64,000 nt of DNA, from contig JBLWWH010000004.1 in assembly GCA_048268105.1 (NCBI GenBank), positions 89,209 through 153,208 on the forward strand, in the 5' to 3' direction. Made by a program: the position numbers and the translations under genes. How positions within the stretch are numbered: position 1 is the first letter of the stretch; each line of letters opens with the position of its first letter. Origin of the DNA: Weeksellaceae bacterium. Lineage in GTDB: Bacteria; Bacteroidota; Bacteroidia; Flavobacteriales; Weeksellaceae. Shown here piece after piece: positions 39,961-61,456 of this stretch. The notes under the pieces are model-generated. The model was given only the letters and a program-made list of their open reading frames with translations. It was not told the DNA's origin and made no database searches.

Positions 39961-42900
39961 CTATTCCTTTATCATAACATTCAGTCCATCGCTATGCGCT
40001 GTGAATTCTGGTGCATACATGTTTTGTAATTGGGTAATTCCATTCGAGAAATTACCAGCATTGTTGGCTCTTAAATCATATTCAAACACATAAACACCTT
40101 TGGGTAAATAATCGATAAAGAAATTTGTTGTCGCGTCTCTTGTACTTTCATAATAGCCTAAACCATCTTGCCATTTAAAGGTACTCAACACATTCACGGG
40201 TTCAAATCCACTCGCGCGCATATCTTTGATATGAACAAATTCCATCGCTCTATCGGTTTGAATTTCTAATCGAACTTTTACCAAATCGCCGATTTCAATC
40301 GGAGCATTTTCGGTTATTTCAAAGAGCTTAGGACCTTGTGGCGTGTTTTTCTGAATAAACAATTGCTTTTTAAACTTAACATTCGTTTCAGCATTTGTGA
40401 TTTTATCTAAATCCTCAAAATACTGCCAATACATCGCGCCCCAAGCAACTCCTGGAGAAGATTTCTCTACTTCGATTTTACCCATTTCTGGTGTGATTTC
40501 ACCTTTGCTCCAGCTTTCTTTTACATAACCACTACCAGATTGAACGTCGGTAGAAGGATTTGTGTTGGCATCATACCAAATAGTATTTCCAACTTTTACC
40601 TTAATTCCATCCTCTGCATTTGTCCAGTCTTTTCCAGTGTTCATTAAGGCATAAACGGCTTCGGTTGTTGCTTTGGTAGAGTTCCATTGATTAGTCTGTT
40701 TATTCTTCAGTAACCACACTTTCATGCTTTCTACGCTTTCCATATCTTTTGGCGTAATCTCATCAAATGCCTCTATTAACAAGGCTTGTGTTTCAACAGG
40801 AGCTTCAAACCATCGGTAACCACTCACATTTTCTTTCCAATACATGCCCATTTCATCTGACTCAACCGAGCGGTCTTTAATAGAAAAAACTAAATCTTTG
40901 GCTTTTTTCTCGTGACCAAATCTATGAAGAGTTAGGGCTAAAAGGGCTTGCGTGTTCAATGCACGATCATATTTTCCTTTATCTAATTCGGTTAAGAAAT
41001 AGTCTTTAGCTTTGCTTAGTTTATTACTTAATGGGTGTGATTCCAAGAAAAAACTTCTAGCATATAACCAATACAAACCATCATAATCACTCAAGAAATA
41101 ACGCTTTTTATCCGCTTGGAATTTATCCCATTTTTTCTCCATTTCATTATCTATAAACTCAATGGCTAATTCTGGAATACTTTCTAAATCTATCGAGATT
41201 TCTGAGTTCTCACTTATGCCCATTTTGGCTAAATGTCCAAATCCAGCTACAATATGTGTTGTGATATAAACATTTTCTTTTCCACCTTCAAACCAAGCAA
41301 AACCTCCGTTTTCTGATTGTTTTTGCTCTAATTTTCTATAGGTATCCTTCAACTCACTGCGCATTTTATTTAAATCAAATAAAACTGCAATTCTCTTCAT
41401 TTGTTCGGTTTCACTTTGCGCATCTCTCACCCAAGGCGTCTCTTCTAAAAGTATATTTTTAAGTTCTTGATTCTCTTCCAAAGGTGAGATTAATTGTCCT
41501 TTACGATTCCAGTCGTCAAAAACAGCTTTAATTTTTGGATTCGAATTTACAATGGATTGAGAAATTAAATTTCCATAAAAACGTGCAAAAACCTGCTCTG
41601 AACAATCATACGGATACTCACGTAAGTAAGGTAGAGCCATCACTGCATACCAAATCGGATTGGTGGTCATTTCCATCGTCAGCTTGAAATTATCTCGCGT
41701 AGCTGAGGTGGTATTCATCAACTTATCAAAAGTGAAGGTTTTTGATTGGTTTTCTCTCACATGGATCGGCATGGTTTCGGTTACCAGCATTCTATTCGTA
41801 AGAATCGGTAAAGCGTTTTCCTCTCCATCAGAAAACTCACCCGTGCTTGCTATCACTCTATAAACTACCGACTGAACTTCGTCTACGTTCGGAACTTCTA
41901 AAGTCCAAGAGACCGTTGAATTTCCTCCAGCTTCAACATCAAAAGTTTGCTGAGATTGGTTCAAGTTAAATTTAGCTTCAATCGGCTGCATGCTAAATGC
42001 GTCAAAAAGCACTAATTGCGCATCACCACTTAAAGCTTTCTCCGAAAGATTGATGATTTTGGTTTTAAAAATAACTTCATCACCTTCTCTGAAAAATCTT
42101 GGTGCATTCGGAACTACCATCAATTCTTTCTGGGTTACAACATCTGCCTGAAAAACTCCGGTTTTTAAATCTTGCGTATGCGCCACCGCTTGAAAATTCC
42201 ATTGGGTTAAACTTTCGGGTGAAGTGAATTCAATTTTCACATTTCCGTTGGCATCTGTTTTTAAATTCGGAAAGAAAAAAGCAGTTTCTTGTAGGTTCTT
42301 ACGTGCTTGAACTTGACTCAAATCTTGTTTTGGCATTGATGATTCTTCAGTTGTAATAACAACAACTCCATTTGCACCTTTTGAACCATAAAGTGCAGTG
42401 GCATCCGAACCTTTTAAAACTGTTATGTTGGCTACATTCATTGCTTCAGCTTCTTTCTTAGAAACTATTCTTCCGTCCACAACATATAGTGCTTCATCAG
42501 AAACGTTGAGGCTATTTAATCCTCTTAATACCATTTTTTTATCTCTTGCTGAATCTTCTATATTCACCCCTGCAACTTCTCCTTCCAAAGCTGCATCCAT
42601 TGTACTTTCTTCCATGACTGGCGCAGGTGCCGCTGCTTTCATCGAATACATGATTTGATGTCTTCTAAATTCATTCAAGGTTAAACCAAATAAATTTAAA
42701 TCTTCAAAGTTTAATGTAGGATAGGTTGTATAATTACGATAATATATTTGATTAAAATAGGTCTTTTGATCAGTCTGCCAATTGTTAAATGAAGAATAAT
42801 TAGACGCGAAAGGGGAGAAATCATAAGGATTTGTCACAAATTCATCTAGCGATTTATCATACATTCCCGCAAGAACTTCTGCTAAGAATTTATCTCCTTT

Positions 42901-45900
42901 TTTATCTTTTATATTTAAAGTCCAAGTTTCATTTTGACCTGGTTCTAGTTTATTTCTTAAAGTTTCTACCGTGAAATCAAGTTGCTTGTTTTCATAAGGA
43001 ACTTGAATCCCAATAGTTTTGGACGTGGATTGATTGAATTTATTAAAATAAACGTGCACAAACACACCTCCGCGATAATCTTCTTTGATAGGAAATCTAT
43101 AATTTTTTGAATTATTGAGTTGTAGAATTTGCTTTTGAACAATTTCTCCATTGGCTTCTAACTCCACCAAAACATGTGCATCTTCCGCATCTGATATAAA
43201 TGTGATTTCTGCCGTATCATTTGGTTGAAGTGAATAATTTTTTAAAACTACATCAAAATAGGAATTCTGTTCCGTCATTTCATTTGGATTAAAAACTTCT
43301 ATGACTTTTATGGTTTCAATGGTATCATTATTAACCATAGAAATCGCTTTTAATTCATATAGTCCCACTGGAATTTTCTGATTCCAAGAGATTGAATCTG
43401 AGGTGACTGTATTCCATTGTTGGGTTAAAATCTTATCGCCACGGGGTTTATTTTCCAACAAATGTTCGTTGTCATAGGCGATATAAGGTAATTTCGATAT
43501 AAATTCTTGTTTTTCAAGTAATTCATAGTCCACTTTGGTCTGGTCTGATCGTAAAACACGCTCCAGTTTCTGAATTTCTGTAATACTGAATTCCCCAGAA
43601 GCATCTGTATCTAGACCGTTGAGATTTTGTGCAGAAATCTTGATTTTATTAAAATCTTCGACGGTGATTTTATCTTTCACCAAAAGGCTCAGGGTAAGAG
43701 GAATATCTCCAATGCGCACATTTTCTTCTACCGAATGAGTTTCTCCAGAAATATCGGTAACATCGGCAACAATGCGATAAGAATATGCTCTTTTTCCTTC
43801 TTTTTCGGATTCTTTGGGTAAGGCGGTGAAATCAAATTCAAAAATTCCATTTTCATCGGTAGTGGTTTCACCCGAAATCATGTCAACTTCTTCGTTATAA
43901 ATCGGTCTCCACCACCAGCCATAAGGATTATAACTTTTTCTAAAAACACGATAAACAACTTTAGCATCAGAAACATTGGCGCCCGAAAAAGTTGTGGCTT
44001 TCCCGCTCACTTTTACTTGTTGATTTAATTTATAAACACTTTTCAAACTATCCAACTCAACTTGAAATTTGGGTCTTTTATATTCTTCCACTTGAAAGGC
44101 ATAGTAGTTGTCATCCGACCAATCGTCACTAATTTCGAATTCTCCTGTTAGACCAGAAGTGGGAAGCACAAATTCACCATGAACAGAACCAAATTCATTA
44201 GAAATTAAATTTAAAGATGTAATCTCCTCAGAATTAGCATCATTCAATGAGATTTCAATAGACTCATTTTTTGCGATTCGTCTTTCCTTGCCTTTGGATT
44301 GATATAATATACCTTTGAAATAAACGGTTTGTCCGGGACGATAAATCGAACGATCGGTAAAGATTTTTAATTGATTTATCCAATCATCCTTTTTGGCATC
44401 GTTGCGATGATAGGAGTAAGGATTGACCAAAAGAAGAGTTTCTTCCTGTGCGACTTGAATCGCATAATTTCGGTCATAATTTCTAGAAATTTTATTTAAT
44501 TTAACTCGTCCAAAATCATCTGTGGTTAAAGTTTCAATTTTATTAAAAGGAGCATTCTTAACCGATTCTAATAAAGAAACACTTTGATTTTTTAAAGGTA
44601 AACCCGTAGATTTCTCCAACAATTGAACTTCTCTCTCAGAAGAAGTTTCACCTGTTAAAATTCTCGAAGCCAAATCTATATGGGTAGAATTCATGGCTGC
44701 TTGAAACAATTGATGATTAATTTCTCCTTCAAAATTTTCATTATCAGAGATTAAAACAATATAATTTCCTGAGGGTAGCGGCGGAAAAGGAAAGTGAGTG
44801 GTATGACTTTGATAATCGCTAAATTCGTTGAGTTCAATTGAATTTTTTAAAACAACATCGCCAACAATTTTTAATTTTTTTGTTTTATAATCGTAATCAA
44901 AACCGCTGATATTTTTTGCAAACTGACTGTTGTTGAGTTGATAGACGCGATAGAATATTTTGTAGAGGTTGGTATGAGAAATATTCAAAGGATTATATTG
45001 ATTCGCAAAAAAACTTCCGTCTGTGGAAAAATGTAACTGCGGAATCTCAATTTCTTTTTGAATTGCGAGAGCTCGTTGCGCTCCAAAGGTTTTTGGAAAT
45101 CTTTTTTGAGCTATTTGTGTAACTTCAACCGCTTCTACCAGTTTATTTTCTGACTTTAATTCGGTGGCTAAGCTCGCTAGAATATTGGTGGACCAAGTTT
45201 CATTTTTAAAATCTTGGTCAAGTTTTTTCAATGCTGCAATTATATCAAAAGTGGCAGAATTTTGTTTTAAATAATAAAGTTGATCGATATGATTTTGAAT
45301 TAAAGCACTTTTATCTTTATCATTTTTATGTATTTGAATTAAATCGGCATAAATTTTTTCAATCTTGGCTTTTTTCGCGTTTTGATCGAATTCCTGTGCA
45401 TCAAATCGGCGGTTTTCAAAAATTTTAAGTGCGCGTTTTGCCAATATATCATATAGCGTTGGCTGCAGAAAACGATATTCCTTTTCACCCTGAAGCAAAA
45501 GTGCAATTTGGCTCACATTGCTACCATAAAGTTGATTTTTTTGACTTATAGAAGCTTGTAGAAGAGTATCAATTTCTTTCAAGAATTTCTCTGTGGTCCA
45601 AGTTCTAAAATCGGTAGAAGTATTATCGGCAACATCGGTTCTATTTTGAAAACGATAATAATTTTCTTGATAATAGTTAAAATATAATTCCGCCAAAATG
45701 GATTGCAAAACAGACTTTTCGAGACCTTTATTTTGTTCAATTTCTTGTAGAATTTCATTTTGAGTTTGAATAACAATATTTTCATCATCAGAAGTTTGAA
45801 CAGCAATATTGGATTTAAAAATCAAGGCTTTAATCAAATCATCGGTTTGATTTTCTGCTTTAGCCGCCTCATAAATTTCGTTTAAAAGAGGAGAAAGTTG

Positions 45901-46023
45901 TTTTAGTTTGCCTTGATCGAGTTGGGTTTGAACGTCTTTCCATTTTTGAGAAAAGGGATATTCCTGAGCCATCATAGGTAGTGAAATAATTAAAAAACCG
46001 AGAATATAGAGAAACTTGCGCAT
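39961..46023 (-). CDS. Bacterial alpha-2-macroglobulin-family protein (thioester-containing, 2020 aa, secreted)
   Basis: The signal peptide is MRKFLYILGFLIISLPMMAQ. The thioester motif PYDCSEQV (CSEQ) is at nt 41593-41604. Repeated MG-like beta domains are present. A plug/CarboxypepD_reg-like insert is present (VLKGSDATALYGSKGANGVVVITT). Confidence 0.78.
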   Translation of the reverse strand: MRKFLYILGFLIISLPMMAQEYPFSQKWKDVQTQLDQGKLKQLSPLLNEIYEAAKAENQTDDLIKALIFKSNIAVQTSDDENIVIQTQNEILQEIEQNKGLEKSVLQSILAELYFNYYQENYYRFQNRTDVADNTSTDFRTWTTEKFLKEIDTLLQASISQKNQLYGSNVSQIALLLQGEKEYRFLQPTLYDILAKRALKIFENRRFDAQEFDQNAKKAKIEKIYADLIQIHKNDKDKSALIQNHIDQLYYLKQNSATFDIIAALKKLDQDFKNETWSTNILASLATELKSENKLVEAVEVTQIAQKRFPKTFGAQRALAIQKEIEIPQLHFSTDGSFFANQYNPLNISHTNLYKIFYRVYQLNNSQFAKNISGFDYDYKTKKLKIVGDVVLKNSIELNEFSDYQSHTTHFPFPPLPSGNYIVLISDNENFEGEINHQLFQAAMNSTHIDLASRILTGETSSEREVQLLEKSTGLPLKNQSVSLLESVKNAPFNKIETLTTDDFGRVKLNKISRNYDRNYAIQVAQEETLLLVNPYSYHRNDAKKDDWINQLKIFTDRSIYRPGQTVYFKGILYQSKGKERRIAKNESIEISLNDANSEEITSLNLISNEFGSVHGEFVLPTSGLTGEFEISDDWSDDNYYAFQVEEYKRPKFQVELDSLKSVYKLNQQVKVSGKATTFSGANVSDAKVVYRVFRKSYNPYGWWWRPIYNEEVDMISGETTTDENGIFEFDFTALPKESEKEGKRAYSYRIVADVTDISGETHSVEENVRIGDIPLTLSLLVKDKITVEDFNKIKISAQNLNGLDTDASGEFSITEIQKLERVLRSDQTKVDYELLEKQEFISKLPYIAYDNEHLLENKPRGDKILTQQWNTVTSDSISWNQKIPVGLYELKAISMVNNDTIETIKVIEVFNPNEMTEQNSYFDVVLKNYSLQPNDTAEITFISDAEDAHVLVELEANGEIVQKQILQLNNSKNYRFPIKEDYRGGVFVHVYFNKFNQSTSKTIGIQVPYENKQLDFTVETLRNKLEPGQNETWTLNIKDKKGDKFLAEVLAGMYDKSLDEFVTNPYDFSPFASNYSSFNNWQTDQKTYFNQIYYRNYTTYPTLNFEDLNLFGLTLNEFRRHQIMYSMKAAAPAPVMEESTMDAALEGEVAGVNIEDSARDKKMVLRGLNSLNVSDEALYVVDGRIVSKKEAEAMNVANITVLKGSDATALYGSKGANGVVVITTEESSMPKQDLSQVQARKNLQETAFFFPNLKTDANGNVKIEFTSPESLTQWNFQAVAHTQDLKTGVFQADVVTQKELMVVPNAPRFFREGDEVIFKTKIINLSEKALSGDAQLVLFDAFSMQPIEAKFNLNQSQQTFDVEAGGNSTVSWTLEVPNVDEVQSVVYRVIASTGEFSDGEENALPILTNRMLVTETMPIHVRENQSKTFTFDKLMNTTSATRDNFKLTMEMTTNPIWYAVMALPYLREYPYDCSEQVFARFYGNLISQSIVNSNPKIKAVFDDWNRKGQLISPLEENQELKNILLEETPWVRDAQSETEQMKRIAVLFDLNKMRSELKDTYRKLEQKQSENGGFAWFEGGKENVYITTHIVAGFGHLAKMGISENSEISIDLESIPELAIEFIDNEMEKKWDKFQADKKRYFLSDYDGLYWLYARSFFLESHPLSNKLSKAKDYFLTELDKGKYDRALNTQALLALTLHRFGHEKKAKDLVFSIKDRSVESDEMGMYWKENVSGYRWFEAPVETQALLIEAFDEITPKDMESVESMKVWLLKNKQTNQWNSTKATTEAVYALMNTGKDWTNAEDGIKVKVGNTIWYDANTNPSTDVQSGSGYVKESWSKGEITPEMGKIEVEKSSPGVAWGAMYWQYFEDLDKITNAETNVKFKKQLFIQKNTPQGPKLFEITENAPIEIGDLVKVRLEIQTDRAMEFVHIKDMRASGFEPVNVLSTFKWQDGLGYYESTRDATTNFFIDYLPKGVYVFEYDLRANNAGNFSNGITQLQNMYAPEFTAHSDGLNVMIKE

Positions 46024-46487: not shown

Positions 46488-48965
46488 TTGTTACTTATGA
46501 CAAAAAGAGCTTTATCGGTTGCTATTTTAATGGTTTTGTTTGTGTTATCTGCTTGTTCTGCAAGTAAAGATAGCATGAAGAATAGAGCTTATCACAACAT
46601 GACGTCATGGTTTAACACCCTTTTTAATGGTCAAGTTGCGATGGATCAAAAACTTGATGAGCTAAAATCTGGGCATAAAGATGATTATTTCCAGACCTTG
46701 CCTGTTGAGCCATATGGTGAATTTGTTGCAGATGATAGTCCAGAAATAATGCAGGCACCTGTTGGTGTGGGTAGAGGCCCAAATCTAAAGACTGGGAATT
46801 TATTAAACAACGAAAGCAGCTCCAAAACTGGTTTTGCTAAAGCAGAAGAAAAAGCGCTAAAAGTGATCGCTAATCACTCCATGAATATTAAGGGGAAAGA
46901 ACGTAATAAGTTGATTTCTAGAGCTTATTTAATGCTAGGGCAGGCAAGGTATTACCAAGGTAAACCTTTTCAAGCTATGGACGCGCTTCAGCAAGTTCAA
47001 GGATTGCCATTTGATAAGCATAAAGAAGAATCTAAATATTATGCTGCTTTAGCTCAAGTACAGGCTGGAAACGATTTTGCAGCAATGGAAGTACTAGATG
47101 AATTATATCAAAATAAGGATATTAAAAAAGATCTAAAATCTAGAGTTGCCAAGCATTTAGCATGGAAATTCTATGAAGAGGGCGAAAATGAAAGTGCTCT
47201 AAATGGTTTAGATACAGCGATTAAATATTCAAAAAATAGAAATGAAAAGGCACGTTTAAATTTCATTCAAGGTCAGATTCTGACCGAAATGGGTAAATAC
47301 GACGAGGCGAATGCTAAGTTTAATAAGTCTTTTAAATTAAAACCAGGCTTTGAAATGGAAGCTCGGTCGCAAGTCGCTGTAGCAATGAATTTTGATCCTA
47401 TGTTGCATGATTATAATAGCTATAAAAAGAGGTTGATGAAGTTGGTTAATACAGGAACCTATGCAACTTATAAAAATGAGTTTTTCTACGCTTTAGGTCA
47501 ACTCGAAGAAAAAAGAGATTCTCTTGGCTTAGCGCAGGAAGCCTATACCATGGCATTGAACGAAAAGATGTCTGATCCTAGGTTTAGAGCGGAAACTTAT
47601 GCAGCGATAGGACAAATTAAGTTTAATGCGTCTGATTATGTTTATGCAGGAGCATATTATGATTCTGCCGTAACCTCCATAACCGAAGGTCCTAGAAAAG
47701 TTGAATTGACGAAGTTTAGAGATAACCTTAGGTCAGTAATCGATAAGTATTATTTAGTTCAGAGAAACGATAGTATTCTTAAATTAGTTGCCATGCCCGA
47801 GGCGGATAGAAATACTTTCTTTAATAATTATATAGAAGATTTAAAGAAAAGAGACGAACAGAAGCAAAGAGAGGAGGAGGAGCAAGCTACCCAATTCCTA
47901 ACACAGACCAAAGGAGGAAACTTCGGTAGTGGTTTTGATCAGGGAGATGGTAAATTCTATTTCTATAGTAGCTCGGCTAAGTCTCAAGGTGAATCAGAAT
48001 TTAGAAGAATTTGGGGCGATAGATCTCTGAAAGATAATTGGAGACTTTCTTCTACCGGAAGCACCATCGAAGATCAAAAGGCTGAACTGACAGGAACAGC
48101 AAATCTTAACAATCCACGTAGATATGAGTTGGCGTATTATTTAGAGCAAATTCCGAGTTCGCAAAGAGCGATTCATGATTTAAAAATGGAACGTGATACG
48201 ACGGAATTATCTTTGGGGATGGATTATTTTGATAAATTCAAGGATACCAAGCTAGCAACTAATACCTTAGAACATTTAGTGAATACTCCGCCCAAAGAAG
48301 ATGAGGTCTTATTGAAAGCTTTATATAATTTATACCGCGTGAATGCTGATAACAATTTAGCTTTAAGCGAGAAATATAAAAACAAGGTTCTAGAAGAATA
48401 TCCAAATACCATATATGCTGAGTTTATTTTGAACCCGCAAAGTGATTTCTCTGAAGAAAATAGTCCAGAAGTTATAGCCTTATACCTAGAAACTTATGAT
48501 GCTTATAAAGAAGAGGAATTTGATTTGGTGAAAGAAAATGCGATGCAAGCCTTCGAGGAGTTTCCCATGGCTAAAATTATTGCAAAGTTTGCCCTATTAA
48601 ATGCCTATGCAGATGCAGCTCTATCCGGCGAGGAGCAATATAAAGCCGGTTTAGAACGAGTGATAATTTTATACCCAGGTACAGATGAGGCTAAACATGC
48701 CCAAAGTTTATTGGATAAATTGGACGGTAAAAACAAAGTTCAACCGCCTGCTTCAAAGCAAGAAGAGTCTAAAAAATTAGCGGAAGACGCGAACGAGAAA
48801 AGGTTACAACAAGAACAGGAATCTCAAAAGCTCATTGAAAAACAAAAGCGTGATATACTCGAAGGCAAAAGTGCGGAGTTAGATCCTAGCCCTCGAAAAA
48901 TTCAAATGAAATCCGATGACAAGGTCAACCCCAAAACTAAATCTCAGATCAGAAGAGAGAGATAA
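46488..48965 (+). CDS. TPR-repeat lipoprotein, SprE/PorW-like (T9SS/gliding-associated) candidate
   Basis: The lipobox is FVLSAC. Multiple TPR-like helical repeats are present. The C-terminal tail is K/E/Q-rich. Size and architecture resemble SprE/PorW, but the assignment is tentative. Confidence 0.5.
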   Translation: MLLMTKRALSVAILMVLFVLSACSASKDSMKNRAYHNMTSWFNTLFNGQVAMDQKLDELKSGHKDDYFQTLPVEPYGEFVADDSPEIMQAPVGVGRGPNLKTGNLLNNESSSKTGFAKAEEKALKVIANHSMNIKGKERNKLISRAYLMLGQARYYQGKPFQAMDALQQVQGLPFDKHKEESKYYAALAQVQAGNDFAAMEVLDELYQNKDIKKDLKSRVAKHLAWKFYEEGENESALNGLDTAIKYSKNRNEKARLNFIQGQILTEMGKYDEANAKFNKSFKLKPGFEMEARSQVAVAMNFDPMLHDYNSYKKRLMKLVNTGTYATYKNEFFYALGQLEEKRDSLGLAQEAYTMALNEKMSDPRFRAETYAAIGQIKFNASDYVYAGAYYDSAVTSITEGPRKVELTKFRDNLRSVIDKYYLVQRNDSILKLVAMPEADRNTFFNNYIEDLKKRDEQKQREEEEQATQFLTQTKGGNFGSGFDQGDGKFYFYSSSAKSQGESEFRRIWGDRSLKDNWRLSSTGSTIEDQKAELTGTANLNNPRRYELAYYLEQIPSSQRAIHDLKMERDTTELSLGMDYFDKFKDTKLATNTLEHLVNTPPKEDEVLLKALYNLYRVNADNNLALSEKYKNKVLEEYPNTIYAEFILNPQSDFSEENSPEVIALYLETYDAYKEEEFDLVKENAMQAFEEFPMAKIIAKFALLNAYADAALSGEEQYKAGLERVIILYPGTDEAKHAQSLLDKLDGKNKVQPPASKQEESKKLAEDANEKRLQQEQESQKLIEKQKRDILEGKSAELDPSPRKIQMKSDDKVNPKTKSQIRRER

Positions 48966-49014: not shown

Positions 49015-49833
49015 TTATTCGGCATCCCTAATTTCTAATCTTCGTTTGAAAATAGGTGCTTTTTCTTTAAATAATCTCGCAAAACTCAGATAGTCTTCTT
49101 GCAGATAATAACTTTCATATTCACCGTTAGAATGATCATAAGTGTAAAGCAAAAATCCACGGATATCCGTCTCTGGTATACCCAAGACATCGACAAAATA
49201 ATTGTTTCCTAAATATTCCTGAACCTCTACCAATCGCTTTTCTAATTTCTCAAATTGGTTGAGGTTTTCCATTTTTCGATAATAACCAGTTATCGATTTA
49301 TAAAGAGCTTCTACATTTAAAGAAGTTGGAATAGGAATCGGTCCCAATTTGCCAAGAACTTCCTCTCTTCTTTCTTTTGGCTTCATGTCAAGTGTGCGAA
49401 TATCGATACCTAAATTCGCGTAGATTTTTTCCACATCATCTCGTAACCTTACAGATTTCATATCTTTCTTTAAATCTCCCGTCAATGGTGGTCGAGCAAT
49501 AACATCTTGTAAAGTAATTACCTCGTAATTCATATGAATAACCAAGGGTTTTAAATCAAAAGTAGATTCTCTTACCTTAAAGTTTCTGTCCACCAAAAAA
49601 GGTGCTTGGAAAAATAAGGTATCACCCACTTGTGCATGAACCTTGAACGAACCTGTTATGTCACTAACTGAGTATACTTTCGTACTTTTATTGGTAATTA
49701 CCACACCTTGTGGATAATCATCCTTAAAATCGACGACAATCATTCCATTCAAAGGTTTCTCTTGTGCTAGTACCTGAGCATTCATTAGACAAAAACTTGA
49801 TATGACGAGGTATTTAATAAATTTGTTCAACAT
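49015..49833 (-). CDS. Secreted hypothetical protein with N-terminal CarboxypepD_reg-like beta-sandwich
   Basis: The signal peptide is MLNKFIKYLVISSFCLMNAQVLAQ. The CarbopepD_reg-like motif is GMIVVDFKDDYPQGVVITNKSTKVYSVSDITGSFKVHAQVGDTLFF. Confidence 0.35.
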   Translation of the reverse strand: MLNKFIKYLVISSFCLMNAQVLAQEKPLNGMIVVDFKDDYPQGVVITNKSTKVYSVSDITGSFKVHAQVGDTLFFQAPFLVDRNFKVRESTFDLKPLVIHMNYEVITLQDVIARPPLTGDLKKDMKSVRLRDDVEKIYANLGIDIRTLDMKPKERREEVLGKLGPIPIPTSLNVEALYKSITGYYRKMENLNQFEKLEKRLVEVQEYLGNNYFVDVLGIPETDIRGFLLYTYDHSNGEYESYYLQEDYLSFARLFKEKAPIFKRRLEIRDAE

Positions 49834-52123: not shown

Positions 52124-52516
52124 TTGAAATTAATGTTATACTTTTGTAAGGAACTGATGAAAAAATATTTCTACATATTATTCTTTATGATTTTCTCAAT
52201 CGGAATGGCAAATGTTCATTTACCGATGGAGAATATCGATTTGACTAAAGTTGCTGGAGTTGAGACAAAGGAAAAAGTTGTTCTTTATCCCAACCCAGCT
52301 ACAACTACCTCAGAGATTAAAGTGATTTCTGATAAAACAAGAATTGTAGAAGTTAGCGTTTATAGCCTTTTAGGAAATAAATTATTCGAAAAAGCTTACA
52401 GTGGTGATGATAAAACGATTCAATTGAATGTTCAGAACTACAAAAAAGGTAAGTATTTAGTTAAAATTATTTTCTCAGATGGAACTTCAGAAGTGAAGGC
52501 ATTGATAAAACAGTAA
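52124..52516 (+). CDS. Small secreted protein consisting mainly of a T9SS C-terminal sorting domain
   Basis: The pattern VVLYPNPATTTSEIKV...KGKYLVKIIFSDGTSEVKALIKQ is present. The probable real start is at the Met at ~52157 (MKKYFYILFF). Confidence 0.5.
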   Translation: MKLMLYFCKELMKKYFYILFFMIFSIGMANVHLPMENIDLTKVAGVETKEKVVLYPNPATTTSEIKVISDKTRIVEVSVYSLLGNKLFEKAYSGDDKTIQLNVQNYKKGKYLVKIIFSDGTSEVKALIKQ

Positions 52517-56426: not shown

Positions 56427-56460
56427 AAAAAAGCCGTCTCCTTGGAGACGGCTTTTCTTC
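56427..56460. terminator. Bidirectional terminator (A6-GCCGTCTCC-TTG-GGAGACGGC-T4)
   Basis: A perfect 10-bp stem lies between convergent genes. Confidence 0.65.
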
Positions 56461-56486: not shown

Positions 56487-57917
56487 TTAGAACCTAAATC
56501 CTACCGATAAAGCAATATTTCCTTGTTGCTCGGTGATATCCTTTACGCTTTGTGCAAATCCACTTTCGCTAGCGTTCAATGACAATGCATTTAAAGCTTC
56601 TGTTTCTGTTAAACCAAGCGCATCAATTGAACCACCATGGTCGTAGAAATTACCTGCAATTAAATAATTTCGATCTCTTTCGTAGAAGCTATAGGCAACA
56701 TCTATATAGAAGCTATGAAATTCATAACCTAATCCTAATGAAAAACCAGAAAGGTCTCCAAAAGGTTGGTAAGTATTGCCATCTCCTAATAAGTCTACTT
56801 CCTCAAAGGGTGTTTGTTCATATCTATAACCACCTCTTAACCTAAAATCTTGTAATCTCATTTCGGCACCGACTTTAATTGTGCTAGTACCTTTCATATT
56901 ATTGGAGATAAAGGCATTTTCTGCTAAAAATGCATCAGTTGGTTTAAATTTTGCTGAACTATAATCCGTGTAGGTATAATCTGCACTAATTAAACCCTTG
57001 GTTCCTATGACAACTGCAGCAGAACCTGTGAACTTTTGAGCTGTCGTAAGATCATTTAAATATGCTAATGTTTCTCTATCTATATAATAATATTCTCCTT
57101 CATCATCAGTTGCACTAAACATGGCGTATTGTGTTGTTAACTCTTCGGTGTCCACATACCAAGTGGGCGATTGATAAGAAGCGCCTAACCTAATTTGATG
57201 ATTCAATTTTGCAATCACACCAAGGCTTGCAGAAATTCCAGATCCTAAACGGGCATTAGGAGTTCCATCTTTAATAAATCTATAATTATCCTCAAACTGA
57301 ACATCATCAACGCGCATGGCTTCAATATGGTCAGCATCGTAAGTATGGAAATTTAATCCTCCACCGAAATAGATGTTATTATTATAGTTTGCTGCTACAT
57401 TCAGGTTTGTAACGGTAGAATTACCAATTCTTTCAGAATAGTAATCCGTCATTTTATTTCCATTAGATGCAACCGTATTTGGCTTTAAATTAATAGCTTC
57501 ATTAACGGTGTTTTGCCTTTGAAAATTTAAACCAACAGCAATGTTCTTCCAGTTATGACTTTGTAAATCATCAAATACTAAAACAGCCCCCGCTTGATCA
57601 AAATTGATTTTAGAATCACTAAACTCCGATCCATTGTTTGAGTTCAATTTGGTTTTTGCCATATTCACTCCAGCAGTAAGCGCGCCTTCTGATTGTAAGA
57701 AAACTGCCGCACCTGCAGGGTTTATGTTGGTAGCAGATAAATCTCCACCCAAAGCACCCATGGCACCACTCATTCCTTGAAATCTAGCCGTTCCGCCTAA
57801 TACCGAACCATTGTTATATTGATGTAGCTCTTCTGGATATTGGGTTACCAAATTCTCCTGTGCAAAGGAGAATGTTGATAAACCAACTATAAAGCTTAAA
57901 ATTATATTTTTCTTCAT
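56487..57917 (-). CDS. Outer-membrane beta-barrel protein, FadL/OmpP1/TodX-like (PorV-like fold class)
   Basis: The signal peptide is MKKNIILSFIVGLSTFSFAQ. The N-terminal FadL-like pattern is GGTARFQGMSGAMGALGGDLSATNINPAGAA. It has alternating amphipathic strands and a C-terminal aromatic (VGFRF). Confidence 0.5.
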   Translation of the reverse strand: MKKNIILSFIVGLSTFSFAQENLVTQYPEELHQYNNGSVLGGTARFQGMSGAMGALGGDLSATNINPAGAAVFLQSEGALTAGVNMAKTKLNSNNGSEFSDSKINFDQAGAVLVFDDLQSHNWKNIAVGLNFQRQNTVNEAINLKPNTVASNGNKMTDYYSERIGNSTVTNLNVAANYNNNIYFGGGLNFHTYDADHIEAMRVDDVQFEDNYRFIKDGTPNARLGSGISASLGVIAKLNHQIRLGASYQSPTWYVDTEELTTQYAMFSATDDEGEYYYIDRETLAYLNDLTTAQKFTGSAAVVIGTKGLISADYTYTDYSSAKFKPTDAFLAENAFISNNMKGTSTIKVGAEMRLQDFRLRGGYRYEQTPFEEVDLLGDGNTYQPFGDLSGFSLGLGYEFHSFYIDVAYSFYERDRNYLIAGNFYDHGGSIDALGLTETEALNALSLNASESGFAQSVKDITEQQGNIALSVGFRF

Positions 57918-57954: not shown

Positions 57955-59202
57955 TTATCTTCTTCTTCCACCTGAAGTTCTCGCTGGTGGCGATGTTCTC
58001 ATAGGAGGAGTACTACGTATAGATGGCGTATTGCTTCTCGTTGGCGTACTGTTATAATTTCTATTTCTCGTAGGAGGTGTACTAGGTGTAGCATTTGGAG
58101 TCCTAGTTGGAACATTATTATTATAATCAGTACCTCTAGTTGGCCTAGGAGTACTTCTCACATCATTCTGACGAGTAGGTGTTGTAGTTCTAATACTAGG
58201 ATTTACTCTGTTATTAGTTCGTACACCGCTATTCGTATTTACCTCTTCGGTAGTTCTAGGTCTAATTCTAACCGGATTTGAATTTATATCACTTGAAACA
58301 TTCTGATTTCTAGAATTTCTAGTTGGCGTTGTTCTAATTTGATTATCATCTACAGTACTTGTAGCTCTAGTTCTAGTAGGAGAGTTAGGTGCTAAAGAGG
58401 CATTATCTCTTGTTACCCCAGAATTAGTTCTATTTACATTTCTCTTTCCAGCAACATTATCTCTCGTGATTCCGTTTTGAATTCCTTTACCTCTATAAAT
58501 TTCTCTCATTACTCTATCGCCATAGTAGTTGTTGTAATATGGACTTCCATAATATCCTGAATAATATGGGTGACCATAATAACCATAGCTACCGTAGTAG
58601 TAAGGTCCATAATATGGATGGAAAGGACCATAGAATCCGCTATATCCATATCCATAACCAAAGTGAGGATATCCGAAACCATAGTAACTAGAATAGAAAG
58701 GACTATACCCCCAAGAATTCCAGCCAAAGTTCAATCCAAAACCTCTGTAAGGTCCGTACCAACTTCCGTAAAATCTGCGGTTCCAGTTATAAGTGTTAGG
58801 TCCGTAGTAGTTATTAACGTGAATTTCTACACCTTGATAGTCTCCCCAATCATTATAATTTCCATTGCTATCGTTAGTAACAATTACCCTATCGTCATTA
58901 TATGATTTAGATTCTTGTGTAGTTTGAGATGTTTCTGGTGCGTTTCCGCCCTCATCGAAATATCTTCCGCCCATTCGAATAGGCTGTTCTTCTTGATAAG
59001 TGTAAACCTCATCGTTTTGTTGATATTCTCTATCTTCTACTGCAACTTGTTGAGTTGGCTGAGAAGATGGATCATAATATATTCCGTCGTTTTCTCCAAC
59101 TGTTTGTTGAGAAACCGAGCATGATGTTACTCCAAATAAAATCATTCCAACGGGAAGGATTTTTTTAAAGATTTGGTCGTAGTTGTATTTTATTGGTTTC
59201 AT
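57955..59202 (-). CDS. Lipoprotein with extreme low-complexity regions: Tyr/Gly/Pro/Phe-rich block followed by a Thr/Pro/Arg/Asn/Ser-rich basic tail
   Basis: The lipobox is LFGVTSC. Residues ~140-235 read like YYGFGYPHFGYGYGYSGFYGPFHPYYGPYYYGSYGYYGHPYYSGYY. The tail has repeated TPTR / RTTP / STPP units and ends in SGGRRR. Confidence 0.45.
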   Translation of the reverse strand: MKPIKYNYDQIFKKILPVGMILFGVTSCSVSQQTVGENDGIYYDPSSQPTQQVAVEDREYQQNDEVYTYQEEQPIRMGGRYFDEGGNAPETSQTTQESKSYNDDRVIVTNDSNGNYNDWGDYQGVEIHVNNYYGPNTYNWNRRFYGSWYGPYRGFGLNFGWNSWGYSPFYSSYYGFGYPHFGYGYGYSGFYGPFHPYYGPYYYGSYGYYGHPYYSGYYGSPYYNNYYGDRVMREIYRGKGIQNGITRDNVAGKRNVNRTNSGVTRDNASLAPNSPTRTRATSTVDDNQIRTTPTRNSRNQNVSSDINSNPVRIRPRTTEEVNTNSGVRTNNRVNPSIRTTTPTRQNDVRSTPRPTRGTDYNNNVPTRTPNATPSTPPTRNRNYNSTPTRSNTPSIRSTPPMRTSPPARTSGGRRR

Positions 59203-59334
59203 CTTGTAGAATTATTGCATGTAAAGTTAGTAATTTAATTAAATTTGCATATAGTTGCAAACTGTTTATAATAAAACAAAAGTAGTGCCATGATATGTTA
59301 AGGCAGGTACTACTAAAGAGATTAAAGAATATTT

Positions 59335-60810
59335 ATGGCAAAATTAACTTCAAGAGAAGAAGATTATAGCAAATGGTACAACGAGTTGGTCGTTAAGGCA
59401 GACTTGGCCGAAAACTCGGCGGTTAGAGGTTGTATGGTCATTAAACCCTATGGTTATGCCATTTGGGAAAAAATGCAAGCACAATTAGATAAAATGTTCA
59501 AAGAAACTGGACATCAAAATGCATATTTTCCGTTATTCGTCCCCAAACATATGTTCGAGGCCGAAGAAACCAATGCCGAAGGTTTTGCTAAGGAATGTGC
59601 AGTTGTAACTCACTACAGACTTAAATCTAATCCAGACCAGCCAGGAAAGTTGATGGTTGATCCAGACGCGAAATTAGAAGAAGAATTAATCGTAAGACCC
59701 ACTTCAGAAGCAATTATTTGGAGTACTTATAGAAATTGGATTCAATCCTATAGAGATTTGCCTATCATGATTAACCAATGGGCCAATGTGGTACGTTGGG
59801 AAATGAGAACACGCTTGTTTCTAAGAACCACAGAGTTTTTATGGCAAGAAGGACATACCGCGCATGCAACTAAGCAAGAAGCAATCGACGAAACTGTTCA
59901 AATGGTAAATGTTTATGCCGATTTTGCTGAATCCTATATGAAACTGCCAGTCGTAAAAGGGGTTAAATCTGAATCTGAAAGGTTTGCTGGCGCAGAGGAT
60001 ACTTATTGTATCGAAGCTTTAATGCAAGATGGAAAAGCTCTGCAAGCTGGAACTTCTCACTTTTTGGGGCAGAATTTTGCTAAAGCATTTGACGTTAAAT
60101 ATGCCACTAGCGAGGGAACGCAAGAATATGTTTGGGCGACTTCTTGGGGTGTTTCTACAAGATTAATGGGAGCTTTAATCATGACGCATTCAGATGACAA
60201 AGGTTTGGTGTTACCATCTACTTTGGCGCCGATTCAAGTGGTTATTGTTCCTATATACTTTAATGATGAGCAAAAAGCATTGGTAGATGAAAAATCTGAA
60301 GCTATTATTAAGTCGCTTAAAGAAAAGGGAATTAGTGTAAAATACGACAATGATGATAAGCAAAAACCAGGTTGGAAATTCGCTGAATATGAATTAAAAG
60401 GTGTTCCGATTAGGATTGGAGTAGGTCCTAGAGACTTGGAAAAAGGTCAGGTTGAGGTAGCTAGAAGAGATAATCTCACCAAAGAATTTGTTAGTTTAGA
60501 TGGATTAGAAGATGTAATCCCGGCTTTATTGAACTCAATTGATGAAAATATTTATCATAAGGCGAAGATCTATAGAGACGCTCATATCACAGAGGTGAAT
60601 GATTGGGATGAATTCCAAAAAGTGCTAGAAGATAAAGGAGGTTTCTTATCCGCTCATTGGGATGGAACTATTGAAACTGAAGCCAAAATTCAAGAATTGA
60701 CAAAAGCTACCATACGTTGTATTCCTTTAGATGCTAAACAAGAAAAAGGTACATGTGTTTACTCAGGAAAACCGAGTACGCAAAGAGTTTTATTTGCCAA
60801 AGCTTATTAA
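59335..60810 (+). CDS. proS: Prolyl-tRNA synthetase, archaeal/eukaryotic-type (class IIa, no editing insertion)
   Basis: It is 491 aa. Motif-2/3 class II signatures are present. The N-terminus [32 protein letters not shown] and the C-terminal Zn-binding-like domain ending ...FAKAY are present. Confidence 0.92.
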
Positions 60811-60885: not shown

Positions 60886-61266
60886 TTATCTTTTTACTCC
60901 TTCAGGACTCTTATTTCTATGTCGATGCATGTCGCGTTTATTTCTATTTTTCTTCATGCTCTTCACTTTTTCTTTCTGTTCTGCTGTCAAAATTTGATCA
61001 ATTTCTTCTCTTTTTTTGGCTCTAAGTTCTTTATGTTGATCTCTTAAGGTTTTAGCTTTAGCTTTTAAAGCGTCTTCTTGAGATTGGTATTTGGCATCAA
61101 TCGCCTTTATTTTAGATACTTGTTGGTCTGATAAACCTAACTTTTCTTTCATTTTTTCAAGCATCTCGCCTTTTTCTTTTTTGTGATCTCCATCTCGATG
61201 CTGTGCATTCATTATTCCACCTAGTGTAAATAATACAAGCAGTAATAGTATTAAGGACTTGTTCAT
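60886..61266 (-). CDS. Periplasmic Spy/CpxP-family (LTXXQ-motif) protein, candidate envelope-stress chaperone
   Basis: The signal peptide MNKSLILLLLVLFTLGGIMNAQ places the start at 61266 rather than the ORF-track 61305. Two LTXXQ-like motifs (LSDQQ, LTAEQ) occur in a K/E-rich helical protein. Confidence 0.45.
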   Translation of the reverse strand: MNKSLILLLLVLFTLGGIMNAQHRDGDHKKEKGEMLEKMKEKLGLSDQQVSKIKAIDAKYQSQEDALKAKAKTLRDQHKELRAKKREEIDQILTAEQKEKVKSMKKNRNKRDMHRHRNKSPEGVKR

Positions 61267-61456
61267 TTTATTGTTTTTTAGTGATTCGTGTATTGGACAG
61301 TTCAAAATTGGAAAGGTTTAATGTTAAAGTTGAAATTTAAATAGAGGCTTTGTTAAAAAAGTAGCCTAATTAACATTAACCACACAATAAAAGCACAAAT
61401 ATTTTATTTAATTAAGGCAAGATGTTTATATTTGTTAACTACACTAAAAGTATATA

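Follow-up and report, generated by a model that had tools for sequence, protein, structure and literature searches.

What could a bacterium use a lipoprotein for whose predicted mature chain is made up of an acidic segment, an almost uncharged segment of aromatic residues and glycine, and an arginine-rich tail? The question is raised by one gene in the 64-kb stretch of a Weeksellaceae bacterium genome analysed here (the window), an open reading frame (ORF) of 415 codons on the minus strand (57955..59202) that starts with ATG and stops with TAA. An initial annotation of this DNA had described the product as a lipoprotein with a prion-like Tyr/Gly-rich block and a repetitive basic tail, and had named a surface matrix or adhesive, an amyloid-like fiber and a periplasmic condensate as candidate functions. 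Our analysis places the protein in a family found throughout the Bacteroidota, always beside the gene for a FadL-family outer-membrane barrel where we examined the locus, and suggests that it may be a disordered, periplasm-facing accessory of that channel. The decisive context, namely the barrel and the synteny with proS, lay outside the initial annotation, as did three short conserved motifs in the N-terminal block.

That the frame is a real gene under purifying selection is as good as certain. Orthologues in a Weeksellaceae metagenome-assembled genome (MAG) and in Profundicola chukchiensis are ~89–90% identical to it, with mostly synonymous differences and with indels of whole codons only; in P. 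chukchiensis, the closest relative, the lipoprotein is 90% and ProS 95% identical to the window proteins. A scan of a genome collection with a narrow alignment of the family yielded five close loci. The ratio of nonsynonymous to synonymous substitution rates (dN/dS) is 0.12 and 0.07 against orthologues L005 and L006 (dS 0.37 and 0.63), and by part the Tyr/Gly block is the most constrained (0.044–0.046; tail 0.09–0.2). A frame not conserved among orthologues had been named beforehand as the sign of a non-coding repeat; since the frame is conserved and dN/dS is low, this test fails to refute coding status, and a non-coding repeat is not supported. The low-complexity region does open alternative frames at 58509–58727 (−) and 58570–58905 (+), both of which had been listed as antisense; the second is antisense, whereas the first shares the strand of the gene and differs from it in frame.

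Behind a predicted signal peptide the chain falls into three blocks (Table 1). Its N-terminus (MKPIKYNYDQIFKKILPVGMILFGVTS, followed by C) contains a lipobox ending at Cys28 (…ILFGVTS, then C28), and the lipobox cysteine is invariant in 74/74 aligned relatives, so that the earlier call of a lipoprotein, to which the signal peptidase II (SPII) prediction for a syntenic protein (Fjoh_4940, below) also points, is very probably right. Residues 31–145 carry a net charge of −13, residues 146–250 consist of 27% Tyr and 22% Gly, and residues 251–415 (T 19%, R 17%, N 15%, P 12%, S 11%) carry a net charge of +21. The aromatic stretch quoted in the initial annotation is an exact substring of the protein, but it spans 80 aa (aa 149–228) rather than ~95, and the block delimited by density, rich in Tyr, Gly, Phe, and Trp, comprises 104 aa. 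The basic Thr/Pro/Arg/Asn tail with its final GGRRR was described correctly, the terminal GG-RR being a feature of the family, and the TPTR-like motif recurs (PTR seven times, TPTR three times). The repetition does not extend to the DNA, in which Tandem Repeats Finder (TRF) detected no tandem repeats in the gene beyond a trivial 19-nt hexamer run, leaving none for the proposed variation in repeat number among strains. The Bacteroidota O-glycosylation motif D-[ST]-[AILVMT] is absent from the lipoprotein sequence. Among the 35 window ORFs of at least 150 aa, the best 80-aa stretch of the lipoprotein has 46 Y+G residues against 21 in the runner-up, and 66 T+R+N+P+S residues against 39. The compositional bias is extreme for this genome, and the composition is atypical, as had been noted; the protein is not rare, its family having thousands of Bacteroidota members.

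Single-sequence search recovered 26 relatives of the lipoprotein and profile search 122 at E ≤ 1e-5, and a HMMER scan of 1.84 billion cluster representatives gave 383 matches at E ≤ 1e-30 and 3379 at E ≤ 1e-10; the best 150 of these representatives match from end to end, with lengths of 330–590 aa. All named sources are Bacteroidota (Weeksellaceae, Ornithobacterium, Kaistella, Gelidibacter, Cryomorphaceae, Algoriphagus, Hymenobacter, and Bacteroidales MAGs). No Pfam family was matched by the query or by any of 74 relatives, no NCBIfam entry by the query, and a PDB sequence search with the family profile returned only low-complexity chance matches (mL77, KIF3B tail). Database names carried by relatives P0002, P0026, P0032, and P0021 (“Vitellogenin II,” “prolyl-tRNA synthetase,” “putative membrane protein YgcG,” and “DUF5320 domain-containing protein”) appear to be mis-annotations taken from composition or from the neighboring gene. 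Literature searches on vitellogenin II in Bacteroidetes, on tyrosine-rich lipoproteins in Flavobacterium and on disordered FadL partners in Bacteroidota found nothing relevant; this is an uncharacterized, phylum-wide Bacteroidota family with no Pfam model and one passing mention in the literature.

Judged from the alignments, the family keeps architecture and composition, not sequence: mean column identity across 74 members is 17%, and the architecture was counted both in this alignment and in an independent set of 133 representatives, of which 117 have the lipobox, 132 the aromatic block, and 127 the basic tail. The N-block is acidic (median charge −12) and the tail basic (median charge +22) in 74/74 relatives, while the middle block has family medians of 39% aromatic residues and 20% Gly; Arg-Arg forms the final two residues in 62/74. 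Within the N-block, an acidic-aromatic motif, D-(D/G)-(I/L/V)-Y-Y, stands 10–13 residues past the Cys in most of the 74 members, and D39, Y42, and D83 are invariant (family alignment A1). Closer relatives share two more motifs, GG(R/K)YFDxxGNAP and WG…V.I.(V)NN, which Flavobacteriaceae versions have in altered form (YYKN(L/Y)F and WGEDPDQYTINIYN).

Certain weaker profile matches (P0061, P0089, P0109, P0111, P0115–P0117, and P0120; E 1e-16 to 1e-6) carry PF14326 (DUF4384) with no detectable lipobox, and may represent either a separate family that shares just the low-complexity tail or a domain-bearing branch. A reading of the lipoprotein as cargo of the type IX secretion system (T9SS) was rejected: Pfam and NCBIfam scans of the query and its relatives found no T9SS C-terminal sorting domain (Por_Secre_tail or type B), and the chain ends in a disordered run of Ser, Gly, and Arg.

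The gene immediately downstream, beyond a gap of 37 nt, encodes the barrel. Its AlphaFold model (pLDDT 89.8, the predicted local distance difference test) has N-terminal helices followed by ~14 long strands, and its top Foldseek matches are 3dwo (a Pseudomonas aeruginosa FadL homologue), EcFadL, TodX, TbuX, and CymD (E 4e-17 to 1e-13). Searched against PDB sequences, the barrel family profile likewise matched 3dwo (E 4.6e-9), as well as TbuX and PorV (6h3i_F, E 5e-4). Hatch residues N66, P67, and A68 do not vary among 58 homologues, and the profile aligns DLSaisvNPAg with DPSAAFNNPAA of 3dwo. Many homologues at 30–46% identity carry PF03349 (Toluene_X); the window barrel itself has no Pfam match at E ≤ 1. 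Both the model and the profiles indicate a divergent but canonical-looking FadL-family channel. Two other identities were rejected. BamG chains of three Bacteroidota β-barrel assembly machinery (BAM) structures are among the fold matches (TM 0.53–0.56), but the profile matched none of them at E ≤ 10 though they are in the PDB set; NF033709 (PorV/PorQ) matched a C-terminal stretch only (E 2.5e-5), with 24 bits against a cut-off of 90.

The lipoprotein and barrel genes are predicted to be co-transcribed as a two-gene operon, based on the short gap, the lack of any Bacteroidota −7 promoter motif found between the two genes, and the terminator-like hairpin after the barrel gene. The candidate promoter element TACTTTTG is the sole −7 match on the minus strand from the lipoprotein start to proS, in a divergent intergenic region of 132 nt. 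The hairpin sequence is a palindrome (AAAAGCCGTCTCC TTGG AGACGGCTTTT) with A and T runs on its flanks; it lies between convergent genes, the barrel gene (−) and a gene of the PD-(D/E)XK nuclease family (+), and has the appearance of a terminator that works in both directions.

The same pairing extends well beyond the Weeksellaceae. The order lipoprotein-then-barrel was found in 14/14 loci examined, from Flavobacteriales, Cytophagales, Bacteroidales, and unclassified Bacteroidota (including a Flavobacteriales genome, Algoriphagus, a Bacteroidales MAG, four Weeksellaceae/Flavobacteriaceae genomes, Gelidibacter, Hymenobacter, and an unclassified Bacteroidetes MAG), and a divergent proS lies upstream in all 13 loci that have that flank, the Bacteroidales locus beginning at the lipoprotein gene. 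Three of the loci were reached from the barrel side; in these genomes, too, the barrel homologue is preceded by a lipoprotein of the same architecture with no Pfam match, with divergent proS beyond. Identities for the barrel and the lipoprotein, respectively, are 98 vs. 89%, 64 vs. 41%, and 52 vs. 33%, which indicates that the barrel evolves more slowly. We consider it likely that the barrel is the functional partner of the lipoprotein.

Table 1. Window coordinates of the lipoprotein gene, its parts and its syntenic neighbors.
Feature	Coordinates	Strand	Basis or remark
Whole gene, 415-aa outer-membrane lipoprotein, predicted disordered	57955..59202	-	Stop codon 57955-57957; ORF call, dN/dS, profile matches
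Signal peptide, aa 1-27	59122..59202	-	Sole AlphaFold helix, H6-26; lipobox VTSC 59119-59130, lipidated Cys28 predicted
Acidic N-block, aa 29-129, with three conserved short motifs	58816..59118	-	Negative charge in 74/74 relatives
N-block motif DGIYYDP	59068-59088	-	First motif
N-block motif GGRYFDEGGNAP	58936-58971	-	Second motif
N-block motif WGDYQGV..VNN	from 58828	-	Third motif
Uncharged aromatic/glycine block, aa 130-233 (104 aa)	58504..58815	-	Density threshold
Basic Arg/Thr/Ser/Asn/Pro tail, aa 234-415, ending SGGRRR (57958-57975)	57958..58503	-	Composition, charge
FadL-family barrel, 476 aa, 14-stranded, with N-terminal hatch and invariant NPA	56487..57917	-	AlphaFold, Foldseek, profile
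Terminator-like hairpin, perfect palindrome with 12-bp stem	56429..56456	.	Directly 3' of barrel gene; closes the predicted two-gene operon
Candidate Bacteroidota -7 promoter element TACTTTTG	59277..59284	-	Consensus match only; 75 nt upstream of lipoprotein ATG
proS (proline-tRNA ligase), divergent neighbor	59335..60810	+	TIGR00408 E 1.7e-164; synteny marker, not a functional part

Two further genes recur at some of these loci. Convergent to proS, positions 60886–61305 (−) encode a 139-aa secreted protein with an LTXXQ match (CpxP/Spy-like periplasmic chaperone; E 2.8e-6); such a gene stands beside proS in the Weeksellaceae loci and the Flavobacteriales genome (L001, L005–L007) and not in the Algoriphagus, Gelidibacter, and Hymenobacter loci, and a periplasmic chaperone encoded near the gene of a disordered envelope protein could be there by chance or for a reason. 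At three Flavobacteriaceae-type loci the barrel gene is followed on the opposite strand by a gene for a very large surface protein with FIDD and CHU_C, the type-B T9SS C-terminal domain (L010 6660–8972, L014 5051–6907, L015 5081–8518); this neighbor is absent from the window.

Experimental data on a probable counterpart come from Flavobacterium johnsoniae, in which Fjoh_4939 is proS, Fjoh_4940 (A5FA28) a lipoprotein of the SPII class with no assigned function and Fjoh_4941 (A5FA29) a FadL homologue (PMC12045153). Fjoh_4940 was assigned to SPII by SignalP 6.0 and classed as a “periplasm-facing lipoprotein”; label-free mass spectrometry of outer-membrane fractions detected it with an average of 46 peptides, a count similar to that of BamG, and Fjoh_4941 with 19 (PMC12045153). 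On depletion of TamL, Fjoh_4940 rose 2.6-fold and Fjoh_4941 5.6-fold, and the authors noted that the proximity of the two genes “might indicate a functional link” (PMC12045153). If Fjoh_4940 is indeed an orthologue, the window protein would be translated, located in the outer membrane and co-regulated with its barrel under outer-membrane lipid stress.

Surface lipoproteins of Bacteroidota are marked by an acidic lipoprotein export signal (LES) whose position at +2..+6 is critical (QKDDE in Capnocytophaga, SDDDD in Bacteroides fragilis, SDDFE in F. johnsoniae) (PMC5080379). In the window lipoprotein the Cys is followed by SVSQQ, with no acidic LES at +2..+6; among 74 relatives the frequency of D/E is 0–1% at +2..+5 and 9% at +6, and an LES-like sequence (two or more D/E at +2..+5) occurs in 0/133 representatives. 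The preprint of the TamL study also places Fjoh_4940 among the lipoproteins lacking an LES. Since the signal is missing family-wide, the default reading is that the chain faces the periplasm, and this orientation is, by the sorting rule, the more probable one.

The mature chain appears to have no stable fold of its own. AlphaFold2, run with the 74-sequence alignment, gave a mean pLDDT of 47, with 35–40 in the aromatic block and no secondary structure past the signal helix, and all three blocks lie below the Uversky charge-hydropathy boundary, on the disordered side; it is highly likely on these predictions that the whole mature part (~387 aa) is intrinsically disordered. Slight rises in pLDDT at residues 41–50 and 81–90 coincide with the first two N-block motifs, a pattern typical in such models of motifs that would fold only on a partner. 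Within the aromatic block, which is 29% Pro+Gly and has a median composition of 4.5% aliphatic and 6.5% charged residues, the spacing of aromatic residues is more regular than in shuffled sequences of the same composition (z = −3.0); the corresponding z is below 0 in all 66 relatives tested, with a median of −1.8. Even aromatic spacing, as Martin and colleagues reportedly found in 2020, favors liquid-like over aggregated states. Arg makes up 89% of the cations in the tail, and for FUS-type proteins the main drivers of phase separation are reported to be Tyr and Arg (PMC10888811). The protein thus has the features of a prion-like, FUS-type low-complexity domain (disorder, few charges and aliphatics, even aromatics, and an Arg-rich partner region). 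Phase-separating behavior is compatible with these computed features, and the resemblance proposed in the initial annotation fits them.

The reading we favor, tentatively and with less than even confidence, is that the lipoprotein is a periplasm-facing, disordered triblock accessory of a FadL-type channel. With the lipid anchor in the inner leaflet of the outer membrane, the chain would face the periplasm, and the motif that follows the anchor at ~11 residues would, along with the two remaining N-block motifs, hold it on the periplasmic side of the barrel; the fixed distance between anchor and motif and the invariant gene pairing suggest that the N-block docks there. The evenly spaced aromatic stickers and the Arg tail would constitute an associative polymer, self-associating via Tyr–Tyr and Tyr–Arg contacts and from acidic head to basic tail, that could also bind anionic envelope material. 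Beneath the channel this might give a gel-like layer or bridge, aromatic in character, that takes up or hands over hydrophobic cargo such as fatty acids or lipids passing FadL; alternatively, the chain could link the channel with the cell wall or the inner membrane. Barrel binding, periplasmic orientation, self-association or condensation, and the role in handling cargo are all steps that we infer. A condensate or sponge mechanism in general is, in our estimate, rather unlikely, and its most specific form, in which a condensate or gel layer nucleated at the dedicated FadL channel on the periplasmic face of the outer membrane offers hydrophobic molecules (fatty acids, membrane lipids) a non-aqueous path linking the channel with the remaining envelope, is somewhat less likely again.

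Several considerations weigh against an accessory role of this kind. The physical contact between lipoprotein and barrel that it presupposes and the cargo of the pair are themselves proposals. The periplasmic orientation is a rule-based prediction, and BamG, PorV, and PorQ hold their partners on the cell-surface side. To our knowledge, canonical FadL channels need no accessory protein. The orthology of Fjoh_4940 would follow from synteny and from its class (SPII, unknown function), not from sequence. Finally, at ~39–45% aromatic residues the aromatic block is far stickier than known liquid-forming domains; instead of behaving like them it could collapse or aggregate, or insert itself into the membrane interface.

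Another explanation, improbable as it seems to us, is that the protein is an envelope tether or spacer that works independently of the channel, its aromatic block binding glycan strands and its Arg tail binding peptidoglycan carboxylates or anionic inner-membrane lipids, so as to tie or space the envelope layers, with the neighboring barrel merely co-regulated. An anchor followed by ~387 disordered residues would be more than long enough to cross the periplasm; the acidic-then-basic order recalls the Glu-Pro/Lys-Pro spacer of TonB; the tail is positive in 74/74 relatives; and induction under the outer-membrane stress of TamL depletion would suit an envelope tether. Set against this, Pfam and NCBIfam scans revealed no recognizable peptidoglycan-binding domain, and such a tether would leave unexplained both the FadL pairing in 14/14 loci across orders and the constant spacing between the lipid anchor and the first motif. 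Exclusion from vesicles was dropped as evidence for a wall tether: mention counts in the supplement of the TamL study suggest that Fjoh_4940 also occurs in the vesicle tables (PMC12045153), from which a wall-tethered protein would tend to be absent.

About equally improbable in our judgment is the surface adhesive or matrix polymer of the initial annotation. The lipoprotein would here be flipped or threaded outward and held by the barrel in the manner of BamG–BamH or PorV/PorQ, its Tyr/Gly block and Arg tail forming a sticky coat for attachment, aggregation or the binding of extracellular polyanions. The partner-binding FadL-like barrels of Bacteroidota do act extracellularly, a surface groove of BamG gripping the lipidated N-tail of BamH (PMC12611786), and PorV and BamG are among the fold or profile matches of the window barrel. 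The organism also has a T9SS, and hence a rich surface proteome. The Tyr/Gly/Asn/Arg/Trp composition is moreover like that of mussel adhesive and high-Gly/Tyr matrix proteins. The claim is nevertheless contradicted by the position-critical acidic LES, which is missing in the 74 and the 133 family members alike, by the periplasm-facing classification of Fjoh_4940, which is without an LES as well, and by the lack of a T9SS C-terminal domain in the lipoprotein; furthermore, the barrel keeps the FadL hatch and its NPA, which argues that its lumen is occupied.

It is very improbable that the protein is a functional amyloid subunit exported via a FadL-like barrel, as FapC is by FapF in Pseudomonas. 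Its low-complexity composition, rich in Tyr, Gly, Asn, and Ser, would suit an amyloid, the gene order of substrate then barrel is that of FapC/FapF, and the FapF secretion pore was predicted to resemble the FadL and TodX barrels (PMC5137466). The amyloid-like fiber proposed earlier nonetheless finds little to sustain it, in that the protein is lipid-anchored, has no imperfect repeats of the CsgA/FapC type (TRF) and no predicted β structure (AlphaFold); its block combines 29% Pro+Gly with evenly spaced aromatics, which are reported to disfavor aggregation, and drifts in sequence while keeping its composition. In addition, the barrel retains a small-molecule-type hatch with NPA, and there are no nucleator, chaperone or protease genes nearby and no Pfam curlin or Fap match. 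That the frame is a spurious, non-coding low-complexity ORF can be dismissed: the region opens alternative frames too, but dN/dS is 0.07–0.12 at a synonymous divergence of 0.37–0.63, indels comprise whole codons, full-length homologues occur phylum-wide, and mass spectrometry picked up the syntenic protein of F. johnsoniae.

Elsewhere in the window, a 2020-aa alpha-2-macroglobulin (39961–46023, −; MG2, A2M, bait region, and bMG10) contains an internal match to the Plug of TonB-dependent receptors (residues 1140–1220, E 1.1e-6), an odd combination in one protein. A 130-aa protein (52124–52516, +) consists of little beyond Por_Secre_tail (E 1.4e-11), which shows that the organism has a T9SS. Two further ORFs (46488–48965, +, 825 aa; 49015–49833, −, 272 aa) have no Pfam match at E ≤ 1e-4.

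If the lipoprotein and the barrel work together, the pair would constitute the first accessory factor for FadL-type hydrophobic transport, a candidate answer to how hydrophobic cargo crosses the aqueous periplasm, and a tractable, membrane-anchored bacterial case of Tyr/Arg-driven association outside the cytoplasm; were the condensate reading true, this would be the first phase-separating scaffold known in the bacterial periplasm. Even with a simpler mechanism, annotation would gain from defining a family that lacks a Pfam model and goes under wrong names in databases. F. johnsoniae is genetically tractable, and fjoh_4940/4941 are open to direct test.

Fjoh_4940/4941 form the same triad of proS, SPII lipoprotein and FadL homologue, with both proteins in outer-membrane fractions; the paper gives abundance changes only, and no function, composition or structure (PMC12045153). 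BamG–BamH is alike in that a FadL-family barrel grips the lipidated N-tail of a lipoprotein (PMC12611786; PDB 9n2d, 9hiv, 9hjm), but BamH is folded and surface-exposed and its gene is not adjacent to bamG, whereas the lipoprotein described here is predicted to be disordered and co-transcribed with its barrel, and lacks an LES. With FadL, TodX, and TbuX the barrel shares its fold (Foldseek E 1e-17 to 1e-13) and the NPA hatch, and many of its homologues carry PF03349, though the window barrel itself has no Pfam match at E ≤ 1; identity to them is only 12–15%, and canonical FadL proteins have no dedicated lipoprotein partner. PorV and PorQ are partner-carrying FadL-like barrels of Bacteroidota with weak C-terminal matches to the window barrel (NF033709 E 2.5e-5; PorV 6h3i_F E 5e-4), but the NF033709 score of 24 bits falls short of its cut-off of 90 and the lipoprotein has no T9SS C-terminal domain.

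The combination of a Tyr-rich, uncharged disordered block with an Arg-rich region, even aromatics and a preference for Arg over Lys is that of the FUS prion-like and RGG regions (PMC10888811). Unlike FUS, to which it has no homology, the lipoprotein is extracytoplasmic and lipid-anchored, has an extra acidic block, and occupies a compartment with no RNA. The aromatic fraction of FUS is ~10–15%, compared with ~40% in the lipoprotein block. FapC/FapF and curli are similar in placing the gene of a low-complexity, secreted-type protein beside a FadL-like barrel, according to the FapF prediction (PMC5137466). They differ in that the lipoprotein is lipidated and lacks imperfect repeats, predicted β structure and accessory genes. 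The Pro-rich spacer of TonB and the linker of LpoB are likewise membrane-anchored, non-globular chains of periplasm-crossing length, with the acidic-then-basic order also in common; the lipoprotein has neither a folded effector domain at its far end nor sequence similarity to them, and its anchor is in the outer membrane beside a FadL barrel. Modules that join a barrel to a lipoprotein are familiar from the outer membrane of Bacteroidota (SusC/D, BamG/H, PorV/U), and to these a triblock lipoprotein predicted to be disordered throughout and paired with a FadL channel, a combination that has no characterized relative, is a new addition.

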